A stretch of DNA of 64,000 nucleotides from a virus. Taxonomy: Duplodnaviria; Caudoviricetes. Below, one piece after another: positions 3,472 through 40,927 of the stretch. Location: IMG/VR virus record IMGVR_UViG_3300028591_003923, positions 1 through 64,000 of that record; one strand, given 5' to 3'. A model generated the notes under the pieces. That model did not search any database. It saw nothing but the letters and a program-made list of their open reading frames with translations, and had not been told where the DNA came from. Position 1 is the stretch's first letter, and each line of letters starts with the position of its first letter. The position numbers and the translations under genes were made by a program.

Positions 3472-4470
3472 ATGAAGGGAGATTTTACTGGATTCACCTT
3501 CGTATATAACGGTCATTCCTATACGACTGAAGAGTTAGGAATAACAAGGGTGAGTGATGGAGACAGGTATAACGAACCGCTTATACCAGAATTAGAAGAT
3601 AAAACAATAGAAATTCCTGGCTTAGACGGTAGTTACTATTATGGTAGTGACTTCAAGTCAAGAAATTTTCCTATAAAAATTGCATATGATTCACTAAATG
3701 AAACCCAGTTCAGGTTGATGAGGCAGATATTTGGCGTTAAACATACGGGTTTACTTATTTTCGATGAAGCGCCGTATAAGCAATATCGCGTGAAGATAGC
3801 CTCGCCGCCGGAGCTGGATTTTGTGTGCTTTGATGAACGAATTAAAGAAGAAGTTGATTTTGATGGAATTAAAGGTCAAACTACTGTTGAGCGAAATACA
3901 CAAAATACGCATCGTATTTATAAAGGCGAAGGTACAATTGAGTTTGTAGCTTACTATCCATTTGCAATTCAAGTATTTAAGACACTTAATGAATATGAAG
4001 ATACGGATTATCCAAATAAGAGTGAATGGGCCGCAGCAAGTAGATTACTTGACACATCAGATGATTTATCTAATGAAATTGATTTAACTAATGGCCAAAT
4101 TAATTTATATAATGCTGGTGATGTAGATATTGGCTTTTCACTTTATGTTCCTTTTACAGAGCAACCTTTTAATTCAGATATACAATTAAGTTATTCTTCT
4201 TATGAATTACGTATTTTAAATACAATAACTAAAAAAGGCGAAGACAAAGGCTTTTTAATTAATACCGTTAATGGATTAGTTGAAGGAGTATCAACTGATT
4301 TATCTGCTGAATACGATACATTAGTTACGTCTGGCAATATATATAATGAATATGCAATAGGCAATTTTTTCAAGGTCGCGCCAAATACGGATAAAAATGA
4401 ACGTACAATCATTGAATTAGAAGGCGGCGTTGAAGGAATGAAACTTTATTATAATTACTTATACTTTTAG
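3472..4470 (+). CDS. Distal tail protein (Dit)-like
   Basis: FTGFTF N-terminus, IPGLDG, LIFDEAPYK, GTIEFVAYYPF, NAGDV motifs; lies just before the Tal-like gene. Confidence 0.75.
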   Translation: MKGDFTGFTFVYNGHSYTTEELGITRVSDGDRYNEPLIPELEDKTIEIPGLDGSYYYGSDFKSRNFPIKIAYDSLNETQFRLMRQIFGVKHTGLLIFDEAPYKQYRVKIASPPELDFVCFDERIKEEVDFDGIKGQTTVERNTQNTHRIYKGEGTIEFVAYYPFAIQVFKTLNEYEDTDYPNKSEWAAASRLLDTSDDLSNEIDLTNGQINLYNAGDVDIGFSLYVPFTEQPFNSDIQLSYSSYELRILNTITKKGEDKGFLINTVNGLVEGVSTDLSAEYDTLVTSGNIYNEYAIGNFFKVAPNTDKNERTIIELEGGVEGMKLYYNYLYF

Positions 4471-4481
4471 GAGGAAAAGGA

Positions 4482-7400
4482 ATGGCGATTTTAAGAAAGC
4501 CATATGAAATTTCGGTCTGGGAAGACATATTAGTGGCTGAAGATGAAAAAGATGGTGAAATAATTCCTAGCCACTATGAAGAAAATCGAATAATGGTCAT
4601 TGGATCGGATGAAATGACATCGCCTAATAAAGCGTTTTCTCCTGTTCTAATAAAGAATATGAATGGAGAGGTTACTTTAACCTTTTCAATGGCTTATAAA
4701 TATTTTGACCCTGCATCTAATGCAGAGGTTATTAATCCATTTATTGGATATTTAATTAACGAAAGAAAAGTCAAGCTTCATTATGACAATAAATGGTATG
4801 ACCTTATCATTGTAGACCATCAAGAAGATAGTGAGACAATGGTTTGGCAATATACAGCTAAAGATGCTTTTATTAATGAATTGTCAAAGAATGGATATGC
4901 TATTGAATTTAGTACCGAATTAGGAAATAATCAAGGTACTGCGATTCAGTTAGCAAAAGAAACTTTAAAAAACACAGATTGGACTGTTGATGAAGAAAAC
5001 TCAGATACGTTAGTTCAAAAAGTAAACGAACCAATGGTGCGCGCAAATGTAGAAACGGCTTTTTCGATTGATATAGTCGGAGAATTGGCAGAAGGTGAAG
5101 AGCGTACTGTTACTATTGAAGCAAACGAAGAAATATATGTATTTTATAGTTATATAGCTAATAAGGAGGCTAAGTTTGTTCAATTTCTGCGAAAAAGTGA
5201 TGAGGATACATTCACTTACGATGATAATAATAACATCATTGGTAGGAATTATCGTATTACTTCTGACATATCGTATACGATAGTCGATGAGAAAATCACT
5301 GGATTTGACGTAGATGGCGGCGGTGCCTGCCAAATCCTGTACGAGGACGACCGCGCGCAGTATACGACCAATCAAGGATATAGAATCGTATACGGGCCGC
5401 TCACTACATACGACCCAGTTATGGAACGTACGGTTGACCGTTATCAGGCCAACTTTCAAGATGGGACAACTCAAGAGGTATATAAATATACAGATAGTGA
5501 CTATACTACTTCTAATGTGGTTCAGTCATATATAACAAATGGTTCTAATTTTAATGTACTTGAAGATGGGTCATTACAGGGATGGAGTAATGCCACTTCA
5601 ACAAATAAAACAGATGAGAGTGGAAAGAAAATATATCAGCATATATCTTTGACCACTTATCCAGAACTTGATACTGGTACGAAGCTTATACAGTTAACTG
5701 ACTTGACTCGTATTCAAGGTTTTTTAGAGTTAAAGTTTGATGGAGTTTTAGATAGCTCTTTTAACTACACCTATTTCAACTCTGGCTTTGAGGATAATGC
5801 TGGTTTTATTGACCATATTTCAGGTGGACAAGAGTTCGTTTTCCGTATTGCTTGCGCGAAGGCTAATGAGAAGCATGGAGATTTAATTCCATTGGACGAC
5901 CCTGGCGTTCGTGCGATGGTTGCTTACTATAAAGAAGACGAATCAAGTAGCTCTATTTTAAAAAGAACTAACTATCGCTATATAGAAAATAAAGAAGATA
6001 TAATTCTTAATTTTGACGGTAGTGGAGAAAAAGGTGAATGGGTTTTAGACAATCCAACGATTACTGGAGGTACTTTTTCTGTTGATTCAACTACTGGAGA
6101 AACGGATTATAAAAACTATGTAATTAATAATGTAGTTCAAGAACCTACGACAAATTCGGTTTATAAAGTTGAGGGTGATTCAACTGATTATGTTTGGGAT
6201 AGTAAGACTTCTAAATATGTTCAAAAAACCGATACGAATTTTGTTAATTATTATCGTACAATCGCGCGGGCGCGAAAACCGGTAGCAAATACAATAATGA
6301 CTGACCCGACAGTTAAAATTGGTATTTTCCTTTATACTACCGACGGCGCGCTGTGTGAGCCAGACGTATACACATATATTTCTGACATTCAAATAACAAA
6401 ATGTGTATATGATAAAAATGAAAAGCCAATTACTGTTGGAAATATACCTACGACAACAGTGACAGAGACACCAACTTACTATTTAAAACCAAAGGATGGC
6501 ACAACTAAAGAAAAAGTTGATGTATATTATACGTTAGGTGGACTTCAAAGTGCTATTGGCGCGAGTTCAATTGAGCCTATTTATAATAATGATTCAGAAA
6601 AGATTTTATCAATTAATGAAGCTCAATCAAATTGCTTTAATATATTACAAACAATTTGTGAAACTTTTGAATGTTGGCTCGATATAGAAGTAACGCATGA
6701 CACAATTGGTGCAGTTGAACCTGGTACTAAACGTATTTTATTAAAAGAATTTGCTGGTAAAGATAATTTTGCTGGTTTTAAATATGGAATTAATTTAAAA
6801 TCAATTCAACGTACTTTAAATAGTGAAGAAATTGTTACGAAGTTAATTGTAGATAACGTACAGAGTGATTACGTTGATGAAGGCGTGATGTCTATACGTA
6901 ATGCAACCGCAAACCCAAGCGGTGAAGCTAATATAATTAATTTCGATTACTATATAAATAAAGGTTTAATTAAAAATGGTGAAGATTGTCGTAATGACTT
7001 AATTGCTTATCAGGCCGAAATGAAAGGCTATAATAATCAATTAAAGGAATTACAGACGCAAAAGAGTAAGCTTGACCTTGCTTTAGAAAAATTAAAAGCA
7101 GATAGAAATGTTTATACCGAATTAATTGACACAGCGAAGGATAAATATAATGAAGGGCTAGCCGATTTTAAAAAAGCAACTGGTTGGGATTATAATGATT
7201 ATGTAGAACAATATGGAACAATAACTTCTATAGTTGATATGGCGCCAATTCAGCCTTCTGATATGGATGTTACTGGAGAAGAGGTTCCTACAGACGACCC
7301 TACGCCGAAAGATTCTACTAGTTGGACTTATAGTAGTTTAGGTTATGGCTTTGCAATTTATGGCGGAAAAGTCTATTGCGCAGACCAATATTTTAGTTCT

Positions 7401-32941: not shown

Positions 32942-33406
32942 ATGGTATACACACCCAATCACAATCCAGACTATTACAAACTTAATCCTTCTATGACGAA
33001 CTGCGGTAGTTATGCCTTCAACATAGAAGAATGGTACGACCCAGAGCTGGATGAAGAATGGGGTGAAATAGAAGAATGGATAGACTATTTCCTTGATGCG
33101 GGATATGAGCTTTCAGAAGTGCCTGACTTAATCGCACGATGTTACGTTGACCAAATCCTATCCGATTTCTATGAAGATGTCCGTCTCATTGATAACGAAC
33201 ACGACGGCGCGCCGAATGAGGAAGTCATAGCGTTCCGCGTATACATAGACCTTGAAGATTTTTGGGGATTTGATTTCCATTTCAAAGTCTTTCGTGATGG
33301 CTACTGGAGAGAAAAGTGTGGTTCTCAAGACGTGACTCCATGTGATTTAGAAACATGGGGTCGGTACAATAGCTCAACTTTCTTCTTTGCAAAAAAGATA
33401 ATCTGA
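32942..33406 (+). CDS. Hypothetical acidic protein, possible Cys-His catalytic pair
   Basis: TNCGSYAF and DFHF..W.EK.G; own sigma-A promoter at about 32870-32898. Confidence 0.6.
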   Translation: MVYTPNHNPDYYKLNPSMTNCGSYAFNIEEWYDPELDEEWGEIEEWIDYFLDAGYELSEVPDLIARCYVDQILSDFYEDVRLIDNEHDGAPNEEVIAFRVYIDLEDFWGFDFHFKVFRDGYWREKCGSQDVTPCDLETWGRYNSSTFFFAKKII

Positions 33407-33410
33407 AAAT

Positions 33411-33525
33411 TTGAAAAGTTCTGAAATTTTTGCTATAATATATATACAAGGTTGAAAGAGATAAGAAATTTTTGAGAAAAAATTAGTTCTGAAATTTTGA
33501 CAAACTTAAAAAATTCTGATATAAT
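33411..33525 (+). promoter_or_regulatory. Two tandem sigma-A promoters driving the ORF-free ncRNA block
   Basis: TTGAAA-17-TATAAT (33411-33439) and TTGACA-17-TATAAT (33497-33525). Confidence 0.85.
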
Positions 33526-33585
33526 ATATATGTAAGAAAAAGAAAACAAACATTGATGCATTTCAGGAACATGTTGATGTTTAAT

Positions 33586-33623
33586 GCGGGCGGCTTTCGT
33601 ACTCACTTCCTTTCGCCGCCCGC
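33586..33623 (+). ncRNA. Hairpin displaying an anti-Shine-Dalgarno loop
   Basis: 9-bp stem gcgggcggc/gccgcccgc; loop tttcgtactcacttcctttc. Confidence 0.55.
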
Positions 33624-33641
33624 GCACTACCAAGTGTAATC

Positions 33642-34229
33642 GTGCCACCAGTACGACCTGGTGAGAGTCTCAAGCCTCTGCAAAACGAGAGAGCACAGGT
33701 TAAAAAGTTAATGGTTGTGTCAAATGCAAAGAGTGCGTTATTGACTGCGGGTTAAAGGTGAGTCGTTATCACCTGAACAGCTGAGCAGAGAGGGAAATAA
33801 TCAAAGGCCAAAAGAAATACCTCGGAAGTACAGTAAAGGCACATTTACCGAAAGAGCTGTGGACGTTAACTTCTGTGAAAGGTTGGGCTGAGTGTATGAG
33901 AAAAGCTCTTGGTCCACCGTTGAATTTACCGACGTGTACCTTGAATTCTAGCTTCTATGGCGGCGGCTAGATGTGAGGATAGGTAGGTTTGACAGCTGTC
34001 ATGAATTAGGGCGAGTTACGGGCCTACAATACCGGACTGGGTGCGGGTAACATTAACCCGTCGTGCGCAAGCAATGTTAGAGCTGCCAAAGCGGTGGAAT
34101 CCGTTCGTTAGGAAGTTACGAGAGACATTCCCGTTGACGTTGCGATAGAGTCCGTGAGGTGGAACGATAGACCGCCCCTGTGTACACAACAGATGGTCTT
34201 GGGGAACACCTTTCCCCAACCAATGGCAC
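33642..34229 (+). ncRNA. Unassigned large structured RNA, about 590 nt
   Basis: No plus-strand ORF, raised GC, many helices, ends pair (GTGCCA 33642-47 with TGGCAC 34224-29), downstream of strong promoters. Confidence 0.6.
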
Positions 34230-34279
34230 CAATAGGAGTCGCCTTCACGCGGCGGTGCTGTTTCTACTGAGAACTCCTT

Positions 34280-34939
34280 ACAATTTCATAAATAAATATA
34301 CTACTTGAACTCAGTGTAGAGATGCTAAACTAGTATCGCTGAGGCGCAGGCTGACAGAGTTACCCAGGACTACGAAACAAGGATACTTGCGGATAGTTGG
34401 CTGTGGAAGCGGGGCGACCCGTGGAAAGAAGACCTGGAAGGTCAACGGCTGAAAGATGTACAGTGCGGCGCTTCGGTTATCGCAGATAAAGGTAGCATGT
34501 GGGTCGGGGATGTAATAGACGCTCCTGTGGAGAAGAATCCAAGTTAGGGACTTAGCTGGTGACTGCGTTCACACCTTGGAAATACCAATAAATTCCTTTG
34601 CCGTGAAGCGGTGAGAACCGTGTATAAGACCTGCGTGTCGCGTACGAGTAGCACAAATGGCAAGACTTGGACAGAAGGAAAATTGTACAAGTGTAATAGG
34701 TTATACACTCTTATTCTAATCCGTACAGTGTGTGAAAGTTAAAGGTAGACATTCCTTTATGGACTAATGGCTCTGCGGAGTAGTCGCTAGGGAACGGCGG
34801 CAGTAACAGTAGTTCCTGGTTATTGAGGACGGGACTTGCAACCCCGTACATGGCAGTAACTATCCATTGACTGAATATATCTGAAGGTAGCTAGAAGTAA
34901 GATGAAAGTCTCTTGTTGTATATTTATTTATGAAATTGT
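34280..34939 (+). ncRNA. Large structured RNA, about 660 nt, ROOL-like
   Basis: Perfect 22-bp closing helix (34280-34301 with 34918-34939), no ORF; size and phage/tRNA context fit ROOL. Family call is from recollection only. Confidence 0.6.
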
Positions 34940-34961
34940 TTTTTAAAGAATGGAGGCTTAT

Positions 34962-35246
34962 ATGAAAAAGGTTTATGTAAATGAGTACAATGGCGATGCA
35001 TACGAATCTGCAGAAGATTGCCTAAAGTCAGAAGAAGAATACAAAATTGAACGAGAGAAAGCTGCAGCAGCTGCCGCTAGGAAAGCAGAGTATGATGCAA
35101 GAGTAGATGCAGCTTATGATAAGGCTGAGGAAGCTTTAAATGAATATATTAGAGTACTTTCAGAAGAAACACCAATTGACGTTGATAGAGTGATGCTTGA
35201 AATGATAGCTAATGTACTGTTTAGAAAGGACGAGGACGATGACTAA
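34962..35246 (+). CDS. Hypothetical coiled-coil protein
   Basis: ggagg RBS; CLKSE followed by helical run. Confidence 0.65.
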   Translation: MKKVYVNEYNGDAYESAEDCLKSEEEYKIEREKAAAAAARKAEYDARVDAAYDKAEEALNEYIRVLSEETPIDVDRVMLEMIANVLFRKDEDDD

Positions 35247-35863: not shown

Positions 35864-36649
35864 ATGATTTTTTGCACTGGAGATACTCATCAAGGATATG
35901 ATATAGCTAAACTTAAATGCTTTGCCCAAGAGGGTGGAAAAGACTTAACCAAAAACGATTATGTAATTGTTTGTGGTGACTTTGGCTTACTTTGGAACTA
36001 CCGAGAAACAGGCGAGTATATGCCATCTAATCCCGCAGATGCTCACTGGACACGGCGCGAGCGCGAACTTTATGATTGGTATAATGAGTTGCCTTGGACT
36101 ACACTTTTCGTCTCGGGGAACCATGAGTGCTTTGATAGACTCGATAGCTATCCAATTATTGAATGGCACGGCGGCCGAGTGCAAAGAATCAGTGATTCTA
36201 TTATCCATTTAATGCGTGGTGAAATATTTGAGCTTGAGGGTAAGACGATACTAACTTTCGGCGGCGCGCAGAGTACGGATAGAGGAACGATTACTCATAC
36301 TGAAGACTTTGACGAACATAGGATATGGTGGAGACAGGAAATTCCTTCAACTGTTGAATACAATCATGCAGTAGATAATTTAAAAAAACATAATAATAAA
36401 GTAGATTATATAATAACACATGATTGTCCATTTGACATAAAGCAAGTAATTTACGCTACTACTTTTGACAGTTATGGTAATACAAATGCTAATGCAGTAT
36501 CAGCGATGATTAATTCATGGCTTTATACGGTAGACTTTACTCATTGGTACTGCGGTCACCTACATATGGATAGAGATGTAAGAAATGTTAGTGTTTTATA
36601 TCAAGATATAGTTCCATTAGTACAGGAGGATATGTATGAATCTATTTAA
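35864..36649 (+). CDS. Calcineurin-like metallophosphoesterase
   Basis: GDTH, GDFG, GNHE, THDCP, GHLH. Confidence 0.9.
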   Translation: MIFCTGDTHQGYDIAKLKCFAQEGGKDLTKNDYVIVCGDFGLLWNYRETGEYMPSNPADAHWTRRERELYDWYNELPWTTLFVSGNHECFDRLDSYPIIEWHGGRVQRISDSIIHLMRGEIFELEGKTILTFGGAQSTDRGTITHTEDFDEHRIWWRQEIPSTVEYNHAVDNLKKHNNKVDYIITHDCPFDIKQVIYATTFDSYGNTNANAVSAMINSWLYTVDFTHWYCGHLHMDRDVRNVSVLYQDIVPLVQEDMYESI

Positions 36650-40416: not shown

Positions 40417-40493
40417 GGGGGTATAACGGTTTCGAGCGGCGTTAAGTCCGAAGTGACCTCGTCGTGAAGTGGGTTCGACTCCCACTACTTCCA
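40417..40493 (+). ncRNA. Minimal tmRNA-like RNA (tRNA-like domain only)
   Basis: 5' GGGGGTATAACGGTTTCGA; acceptor with G3.U70 and A73; short P2 gcggcg/cgtcgt; T-arm gtggg-ttcgact-cccac. Confidence 0.7.
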
Positions 40494-40927
40494 TTGTCAG
40501 TGGTGTAACGTATGCGGCGCCCGCGCTAAATACGTAGGGATTATCTTATGGGAAGGGATAAGATGGGCGCAGTTGACTTTAAACAGTCGGTAGGTTGTGA
40601 CGAATAGGAACTGCGTAAGTCGTCGGAGAGGTCCTGCCTTAGTGGACGATTTATAAGTCCGCACGTTGGATTGTTCCCGCAGCAAGAGGTAGACGACCCA
40701 TCTACAACTTTTCCGTGCGGTTATTGAACTGTAATAAAGGCTTGGGTAAGAGGACCCTGTAAGTAGTTGATAGTGGAACAATAACCTTTGATTTAATGAG
40801 TTAACTTAAGTTAGCTTTAGATGGGAGTCTTGAACAGGCTATTAGACTTAATACTCGGCCGTGGAGCGCGCATTACAAATCCCATCTTTTATGCGCGAGT
40901 GGTGGAATAGGCAGACACGAGGGACTT

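Follow-up and report, generated by a model that had tools for sequence, protein, structure and literature searches.

Predicted twister and theta-type ribozymes bracket an uncatalogued structured RNA upstream of ROOL in a phage genome

The stretch of DNA analysed here, which we call the window, comprises the first 64 kb of the 129.5-kb IMG/VR virus record IMGVR_UViG_3300028591_003923 (Caudoviricetes). We have studied the interval that lies in front of the ROOL RNA of this phage. There, at positions 33642–34229, a previous examination of the letters and their open reading frames (the sequence-only reading) had proposed a structured RNA of about 590 nucleotides (nt) belonging to a single, possibly new class. 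On the evidence of its sequence, the region is composite and contains in tandem a twister ribozyme, an uncatalogued folded RNA of ~530 bases (the cargo) and a theta-type ribozyme of the hepatitis delta virus (HDV)-like kind. The features of the locus, all of them on the plus strand, are the following:

33411–33439, plus strand: upstream promoter-like site (TTGAAA, 17 nt, TATAAT, extended TG; 11/12)
33497–33525, plus strand: consensus promoter (TTGACA, 17 nt, TATAAT, extended TG; 12/12)
33586–33623, plus strand: leader hairpin, with an all-G/C stem of 9 base pairs (bp) and a 20-nt pyrimidine loop containing CUUCCUUUC
33633–33697, plus strand: predicted type-P1 twister ribozyme (RF03160, 52.2 bits, E 1.3e-10, model positions 1–68)
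33698–33843, plus strand: cargo domain A, ~146 nt, five helices, with homologues in L002, L100, L101, L102 and L103 (see below)
33844–34224, plus strand: cargo domain B, 381 nt, present in this lineage only and ending at the theta cut site
34194–34203, plus strand: cargo tail UGGUCUUGGG, complementary over 10 bp to CCCAGGACUA at 34363–34372 in ROOL
34225–34278, plus strand: predicted minimal HDV-like (theta-type) ribozyme, which follows the published theta layout field by field
34285–34931, plus strand: ROOL RNA (RF03087, 255.8 bits, model positions 1–574)

Relatives were retrieved by scanning IMG/VR with the twister pattern of the family, GUAAUCGNGCC...GUCNCAAGCC, and with a variant of it that has a U-A pair in pseudoknot T1. 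The closest one, L002 (IMGVR_UViG_3300021255_003796, also L006), is 88% identical over the region. An ENA contig, L083, is identical to L002 at this locus, and there are thus two alleles in all, that of the window and that of L002/L083. The other members are these:

L100 (= L091): IMG/VR contig 3300021387_000508
L101 (= L098 = L099): IMG/VR contigs 3300028886_000087 and 3300032007_000320
L102 (= L038): IMG/VR contig 3300028048_000068
L103 (= L094): IMG/VR contig 3300026549_000050
L045: IMG/VR contig 3300031853_002584
L092: IMG/VR contig 3300001487_000887

The segment 33560–34280 is non-coding and richer in G+C (0.42–0.53) than its flanks (0.25–0.36), as the sequence-only reading had noticed. 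From the end of the preceding gene (33406) to the beginning of ROOL (34285) no credible open reading frame (ORF) was found on either strand. The longest one on the plus strand has 42 amino acids and a GTG start, in agreement with the earlier statement that this strand is devoid of ORFs. All three stop codons are present in each plus frame, so that no simple recoding opens one, and both an alternative genetic code and a hidden ORF were ruled out by the distribution of stops and the ORF lengths. The folding energy of the region taken as a whole was no better than that of shuffled sequences (z −0.77 for the plus strand and +0.81 for the minus strand). The two promoters that had been announced upstream were recovered at 11/12 and 12/12, both of the extended TG type, and the first of them is the same in L002 except for one nearby base. 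Transcription is inferred to start near 33532, and a comparable promoter precedes the leader hairpin in every member of the family. The promoter region is itself a tandem duplication of ~44-nt copies (33402–33445 and 33488–33531) about 77% alike, each holding one near-consensus promoter, and both are kept in L002. No terminator was found between the cargo region and ROOL, which makes their co-transcription plausible. A candidate terminator at 34238–34256 was rejected, as the site corresponds to the P3/P1 region of the theta ribozyme and its T-run is absent from L002. The ROOL-like RNA expected downstream is a ROOL (34285–34931, 256 bits), closed by the helix 34280–301/34918–939 and followed by a run of T.

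The Rfam scan (4227 families of Rfam 15, with a permissive cut-off of E ≤ 10) gave a strong match to a known family only for the 5' 65 nt, the twister, and none for the remaining cargo; the hit to a catalogued family that would refute the sequence-only reading thus concerns these 65 nt alone. Only one twister was found in the window. The six related operons contain the same twister at 48–57 bits, and the E-values for the window and the relatives range from 1e-8 to 1e-10. When the seven operons were aligned, the twister structure including both pseudoknots was paired in 94.7% of the cells, with 11 pairs changed on both sides; none of 500 shuffles matched this, and slid controls paired at 23–54%. 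By helix, the values were 100% for P2 and P4, 92.5% for P3 and 82% for P1, and the pseudoknots T1 and T2 paired in 100% of the cells in the seven sequences. No variation was seen within the family in the core elements UAA, GCC, GUCNCAAGCC, AAA and GAGNG, and the dinucleotide for cleavage, U-A, is present. In the window, the sequence of loop L4 is GUCUCAAGCC and that of the 3' internal loop GAGAG (consensus GUCCCAAGCC and GAGGG). The middle pair of T1 has both partners changed with respect to the Rfam consensus, from C-G to U-A, and across the seven operons this pair is UA in four, AU in two and GC in one.

The element thus has the helices P1–P4, the two pseudoknots, the cleavage dinucleotide and the conserved bases of loops and junctions in common with the described RF03160 twisters (PMC11662667). 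It differs from them in its score (52 vs 67 bits), in the U-A that replaces C-G at the middle of T1 (A-U or G-C in relatives) and in its location at the head of a large structured RNA, where it would release a hairpin leader, a use absent from the literature searched. About 94% of the natural twister candidates that have been assayed were active despite imperfections (PMC11662667). The U-A variant of T1 was found at 70 sites in IMG/VR (loci L012–L080), 62 of which also have the twister 5' signature UAA-N4-GCC. All the U-A T1 families that were checked score below the gathering threshold, so default Rfam annotation probably overlooks many twisters of phages.

The predicted twister cut falls between U33637 and A33638, and nearly the entire ribozyme would therefore remain at the 5' end of the cargo. 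Two features on which the proposal of a single RNA had been built belong to the ribozymes. The small pseudoknot described at 33664–33690 lies inside the twister, of which it takes up P4, the T1- and T2-forming loop L4 and one strand of P2, the 3' one. Similarly, the complementary end hexamers GTGCCA (33642–47) and TGGCAC (34224–29) do exist, but each one belongs to a local ribozyme fold of its own. In the twister, the first takes in the final P2 base, the GC of pseudoknot T2 and the two bases that open P3; the second takes in the theta cleavage site and P1. Besides, 33639–33649 (AUCGUGCCACC) is complementary at 10/11 positions to 34160–34170 in domain B (GGUGGAACGAU). Both alleles are identical at these sites, so covariation cannot judge this pairing, which could be an alternative fold adopted after cleavage or a chance match.

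At the 3' end, 34225–34278 can be parsed following the order of the published theta tables (PMC10879173 supplement) as P1 GGCACC, J1/2 AAU, P2 AGGAGUC, P3 GCC, U, P1.1 UC, L3 ACGC, P3' GGC, P1' GGUGCU, P1.1' GU, L4 UUCUA, J4/2 CUGAG and P2' AACUCCU. P1 pairs 34225–30 with 34254–59 (the first pair being G.U), P2 34234–40 with 34272–78 and P3 34241–43 with 34251–53. The complete L3 is U UC ACGC, L4 has 5 nt and J4/2 starts with C34267, which is not an independent result because the descriptor demanded a C at the catalytic position. With the strict theta descriptor there was a single match in both strands of the 64-kb window and 0 in 200 shuffles; a looser descriptor gave many false matches. The comparison between the window and L002 showed compensatory changes in three helices of this pseudoknotted topology, namely C-G to U-A in P1, A-U to G-C and G-C to U-A in P2, and G-C to A-U in P3. 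The G34225.U34259 wobble at the base of P1 is the same in L002, and a 33-nt P4 hairpin takes there the place of the 5-nt L4 of the window. J4/2 is CUGA(G) in the window, and CUAA, CCAA, CAAA or CGGAA in L002 and other copies of the family. P1.1 consists of two pairs (CC vs GG) in L002, and the UC/GU form of the window recurs in the theta ribozymes found after ROOL in L101, L102 and L103. Neither the theta ribozyme of the window nor those of the relatives had any match in the Rfam scan.

Cleavage is predicted to fall between U34224 and G34225. No transfer RNA (tRNA) ends within about 5 nt upstream of it, the RNA upstream being the 587-nt cargo, and hence we have filed the element as a minimal HDV-like ribozyme of the theta type rather than as a tRNA-associated theta ribozyme. 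It is nearly superimposable on the theta ribozymes of gut phages (Kienbeck et al., 2024, PMC10879173), with the same order of parts, a 3-bp P3, a U-NN-NCGY L3, the same basal G.U in P1, a minimal L4 and a J4/2 initiated by C (CUGA). The published copies are located ≤ 5 nt from the 3' end of a tRNA (PMC10879173), whereas that of the window follows a 587-nt RNA that is not a tRNA and abuts ROOL. Also unlike the published cases, relatives have a second copy after ROOL, the copy of L045 abuts the ribosome-binding site of an mRNA, and P1.1 of the window is C-G plus U.U.

Between the two ribozymes, the cargo (33698–34224) gave only chance-level Rfam scores (DUF3800-XI 14 bits, serC 13 bits), and the ROOL model (RF03087) had no match upstream of 34285 even at E ≤ 10. 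Its first part, domain A, recurs in four other uncultured phage lineages, in every case with a twister before it, a theta ribozyme after it and ROOL next. Five helices were derived by hand and the sequences were then re-aligned with a model (model R1, alignment A6):

Helix A1, 33716–21/33838–43, plus strand: UGUGUC/GGCACA; AGGAGC/GUUCCU in L100, L101 and L103; GGAAAC/GUUUCC in L102
Helix H1, 33723–28/33734–39, plus strand: AAUGCA/UGCGUU; AAUGC/GCAUU and AUUGC/GCAAU in other lineages
Helix H2, 33745–48/33785–88, plus strand: CUGC/GCAG; GUAAAC/GUUUAU, GCGAA/UUUGU and GCGCAC/GUGUGU in others
Helix H3, 33757–61/33769–73, plus strand: GGUGA/UCACC; AACGA/UCGUU in L002; ACGUA/UACGU in L102; GCG/CGC in L101 and L103
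Helix H4, 33790–93/33820–23, plus strand: GAGG/CCUC; GAGGA/UCCUC, GGGA/UCCC and GGAGG/CCUCC in others

Strands taken from the same lineage pair at 100%; swapped between lineages, those of A1, H2 and H3 pair at 46–64%. With R1 and A6, 78.9% of the cells were paired (65.4 ± 2.0 in shuffles), 14 pairs were changed on both sides (8.0 ± 1.7 in shuffles) and the covariation score was 0.452 (0.238 in shuffles); in each of the three measures 0/500 shuffles reached the real value, and slid controls had 39–53% pairing. Independently, exactly the same five helices appear when the sequence of the window is folded by itself for minimum energy. All this indicates that domain A is a conserved and covarying five-helix junction domain. 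The internal helices listed in the sequence-only reading were all present. One of them, aggtga/tcacct, is H3 (33757–61/33769–73), and the others belong to domain B: tctagc/gctaga (33947–52/33966–71), cgggt/acccg (in the variable segment) and ttgggga/tccccaa (34199–205/34213–219).

The loop of H4 contains in the window the palindrome GGCC (33806–09). The self-complementary tract at this position differs by lineage (GGCC, GCAUGC, GCAUGU, GUAC, AACGCGUU) and is found 7–10 nt before the 3' strand of the helix. Position-restricted shuffles gave such palindromes at frequencies of 0.107 for the window, 0.066 for L100, 0.194 for L102 and 0.009 for L103. Palindromes that are specific of each lineage and located at one loop position are the signature expected of a kissing-loop dimer, and the H4 loop may let two copies of the cargo pair in this way. 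Kissing-loop contacts are of the type that holds together the ROOL, GOLLD and OLE assemblies (bioRxiv 10.1101/2024.12.08.627333).

Domain B, in contrast to domain A, is known from two alleles only. Their differences are concentrated in three hot spots between near-invariant blocks, with 17 differences in 33875–33925, 58 in 34000–34100 and 0–2 in each of the other 25-nt bins, in a surrounding genome that is about 90% identical. A long-range helix of 11 bp (33911–21/34090–102) around the variable insert 34009–34088 is kept in both alleles, where two one-sided changes preserve the pairing. The hairpins 33947–52/33966–71, 34168–73/34193–98 and 34199–205/34213–219 are invariant. The modules that lie downstream in the other lineages are clearly related to one another (z 19–60); we found no similarity of domain B to them (z about 0) or to domain A, and its local alignment with the neighbouring ROOL gave a z of 1.1. 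These alignments led us to reject domain B as a diverged ROOL, as a copy of domain A or as the module of the other lineages. A tRNA-like element was also considered for the variable segment of L002, but ARAGORN found none. By these comparisons, domain B is a lineage-specific expansion; it is conserved and probably folded, but with only two alleles the fold is unproven.

The tail of domain B is a suggestive candidate for a tether to ROOL across the theta cut. Beyond the 10-bp match of the window, L100–L103 contain, 14–17 nt before the theta cut, an 8-nt tract CUGACCUU (CUGACCUA in L103), whose exact complement, AAGGUCAG (UAGGUCAG in L103), is found about 70 nt into their ROOLs. Thus, CUGACCU(U/A) in the tail faces (A/U)AGGUCAG in ROOL, with one compensatory change in L103, and between clades the match changes together (10 bp in the window, 8 bp in L100–L103). 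The tail of the window scored 23 with its own ROOL and 14 with those of other lineages. The long duplex between cargo tail and ROOL calculated by RNAduplex had a z of about 0.

All the members of the family open alike, with a promoter, a G/C hairpin with a UCCUUUC loop and a twister. The hairpin is found at the same place in every one of them, its stem covaries and its UCCUUUC loop is conserved. The covarying stems include GCGGGCGGC, GAGAGGGCGG and GGGUGGUGG (in the set formed by the window, L091, L092, L094, L098, L038 and L045). The loop CUUCCUUUC of the window resembles an anti-Shine-Dalgarno sequence, and UCCUUUC is similar to the 3' terminus of 16S rRNA. The leader RNA of ~105 nt, once freed by the twister, might bind ribosome-binding sites of the GAAAGGA type.

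In five lineages (window/L002, L100, L101, L102 and L103) the order of the parts is the same and ROOL comes after the theta ribozyme in all five. The theta ribozyme lies 276–531 nt beyond the twister in these lineages, and the cargo lengths in the family are 171, 276, 332, 337, 438 and 531 nt. The ROOLs of the set (L100–L103 and window/L002) score 261–298 bits, next to the 255.8 bits of the window itself. A second theta-type ribozyme was located directly after ROOL in L101 (minus strand, oriented position 2280), L102 (position 2153) and L103 (position 2109), so that cleavage would occur on both sides of ROOL in these three; the window has no second theta ribozyme, and the closing helix and the T-run are found instead. 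In L045 the cargo measures 171 nt and lacks domain A, and there is no ROOL; the theta ribozyme (3902–3952, minus strand) abuts the ribosome-binding site of the ORF 3580–3879 (minus strand), so that the mRNA would begin with a ribozyme and a 5'-OH. This ORF is weakly similar to 34950–35246 of the window (E 7e-5) and the next genes are syntenic, including one for a metallophosphoesterase. L092 (4394–5202) also lacks domain A and has the same leader and twister with a different cargo, a tRNA (4696–4767) and a match of 57.5 bits to transfer-messenger RNA (tmRNA) at 5121–5202, which suggests that the twister heads varied RNA cassettes.

The distribution of the cargo appeared to be very narrow in all our searches. 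The comparison by blastn of 33540–34290 with the INPHARED phages gave no match. Exact 19–21-mers of the conserved blocks retrieved L002 alone in IMG/VR and one contig, L083, in ENA; matches of these words in genome contigs were dismissed as chance matches within coding DNA. A pattern search with ROOL motifs gave no homologues, the one with domain A patterns gave the known members plus two false positives in coding DNA, and a profile built from domain A retrieved only window/L002 and L100–L103. The nhmmer profile together with model R1 found no further copies among the about 105 loci collected. With R1 there were none either in 150 genomes sampled from the class of an Oscillospiraceae genome, which as a sample is not evidence of absence. 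Searches with the neighbouring genes led to relatives that have tRNAs where the window has the cargo.

In the surroundings, the window encodes at 35864–36649, ~0.9 kb downstream of ROOL, a calcineurin-like metallophosphoesterase (PF00149, E 1.7e-9) that is syntenic in L045. Enzymes with the calcineurin-like metallophosphoesterase fold can act on RNA ends with a 2',3'-cyclic phosphate. Further downstream, among tRNA genes, there is an 80-nt match to the tmRNA model at 40417–40496 (39.4 bits, below the gathering score).

These elements can be assembled into a working model. A precursor transcribed from one or both consensus promoters would contain, in this order, the leader hairpin, the twister, domains A and B of the cargo, the theta ribozyme and ROOL. 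Cleavage by the twister after U33637 would liberate a leader of ~105 nt ending in a 2',3'-cyclic phosphate, and the theta ribozyme would cut before G34225. The product would be an RNA of 587 nt (33638–34224), starting with a 5'-OH and the compactly folded twister and finishing in a 2',3'-cyclic phosphate, and ROOL would keep the 54-nt theta ribozyme at its own 5' end, also with a 5'-OH. We infer the cleavages and the nature of the ends from the established chemistry of the twister and HDV-like ribozymes. Speculatively, two copies of the cargo might pair via the palindromic loop, the cargo might stay tethered to ROOL through the tail pairing of 8–10 bp that spans the theta cut, and the retained ribozyme folds might protect the RNA ends.

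Taking everything together, it is likely that the region is the front of a self-processing non-coding RNA operon, in which the cargo comes from a small, uncatalogued and modular family that may work with ROOL. The architecture and the assignment of the ribozymes are backed by direct sequence evidence. What would be new is the arrangement of two known classes of ribozymes around an uncatalogued modular RNA. For the cargo, the most likely role would be that of a structural RNA produced along with ROOL and acting with it.

Several observations weigh against this interpretation. The twister, with 52.2 bits, is below the Rfam gathering score of 67.2, and in the theta ribozyme of the window P1.1 is formed by one C-G and a U.U mismatch (UC vs GU) and P2 has one mismatch. 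The covariation of domain A comes from six sequences of about five lineages and hence from few independent events, and the structure under test had been used in fitting alignment A6. Domain B makes up 65% of the cargo with two alleles only; its structure was predicted from the window and checked on one other allele (L002), and the folding z of its sub-domains (−1.6 to −1.7) is not significant. The ideas of the palindrome and of the tail pairing were both formed after seeing the data. The score of the tail pairing was reached by 9/500 shuffles in the window and by 32–45/500 in other lineages, and local hairpins compete for the bases involved. Finally, ROOL is also found without cargo, as in G001, where a tRNA precedes it.

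The original proposal of one continuous RNA of ~590 nt of a single new class, closed by the pairing GUGCCA/UGGCAC, now appears highly improbable. The hexamers are complementary and no Rfam match in the region attains the gathering score of its family, but both hexamers lie within ribozyme folds that are supported independently, and in L002 the change of C to U in the 3' hexamer is accompanied by that of its theta P1 partner and not of the twister. Moreover, in the relatives the same two ribozymes are separated by cargoes that go from 171 to 531 nt. Of the proposal there remain the non-coding nature of the region and a central stretch of ~530 nt without Rfam match; the ends are known ribozymes. 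Similarly, conservation and covariation in other phages apply to domain A, so that only ~146 nt, about a quarter of the cargo RNA, is demonstrably a conserved structured domain beyond the closest relative. It is unlikely, too, that the cargo has no function of its own and is a spacer or folding insulator of the ROOL precursor, or junk at a cassette site prone to recombination. Such an origin would fit its modular character, with widely varying length and content (171–531 nt), the presence of domain B in one lineage and the unremarkable folding energies. However, it does not account for the fact that five lineages have preserved domain A with compensatory changes in its five helices, for the long invariant blocks of domain B over about 10% of background divergence or for the expenditure of two ribozymes on the precise release of the cargo.

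The end chemistry expected from the established mechanisms of both ribozymes provides an argument for circularisation of the excised RNA, since a 5'-OH and a 2',3'-cyclic phosphate, here from one and the same transcript, are the substrates of RtcB-type ligases, as in ribozyme-bounded circular RNAs. We consider this very doubtful. No RtcB match was found in the 129.5-kb phage record (a search that covered the phage and not the host), no conserved helix joins the two ends in the family, and the 10-of-11 complementarity between 33639–49 and 34160–70 is within chance expectation. There is also a rather low probability that the real product is the ~105-nt leader with its anti-Shine-Dalgarno-like loop, with a twister that exists to free it and a secondary role for the cargo. 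The hairpin, with its covarying stem and its UCCUUUC loop, is indeed found in every operon, including L045 and L092 that are devoid of domain A, but this leaves unexplained the covariation of domain A, the theta ribozyme 3' of the cargo and the invariant blocks of domain B. A role for the leader and one for the cargo do not exclude each other. Lastly, a more ambitious version of the preferred interpretation, in which the cargo is a second self-assembling RNA, equimolar with ROOL, dimeric and paired with it across the theta cut, and decorates or fills the ROOL nanocage, is at present a long shot. A particle of this kind, made of two different RNAs, would be without a described precedent among natural RNA cages.

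ROOL and GOLLD form RNA-only nanocages as seen by cryo-electron microscopy (bioRxiv 10.1101/2024.12.08.627333) and are found near tRNAs in phages (PMC5737381). The cargo shares with them the niche, a large phage in which it adjoins ROOL a few kb upstream of a tRNA island, as well as a similar size, the absence of coding capacity, multi-helix junctions and a candidate kissing loop. It differs in that no Rfam family resembles it by sequence or covariance model, in the ~146 nt conserved beyond the closest relative and in its very narrow distribution. Compared with the ornate RNAs (ROOL, GOLLD and OLE), the multi-junction fold backed by covariation covers the 146 nt of domain A, and the 381 nt of domain B have two alleles. 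In the literature searched there was no account of ribozymes bracketing ROOL or of a structured RNA upstream of it. As far as can be judged from these loci, the cargo family is a small, uncatalogued and modular group of RNAs of rumen or gut-type phages.

To our knowledge, few bacterial and phage RNAs without a known function are larger than ROOL and GOLLD, and their maturation and partners are not known either. The operons described here suggest that in some rumen or gut-type phages ROOL derives from a precursor cut by self-cleaving ribozymes. If true, the ends of ROOL would be defined, the 5' one by a theta ribozyme and, in relatives, the 3' one by a theta cut. In five lineages it is preceded by an uncatalogued structured RNA that may pair with it. 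They also suggest that theta ribozymes serve beyond the trimming of tRNA 3' ends, in the release of large RNAs and even in the formation of the 5' end of an mRNA.

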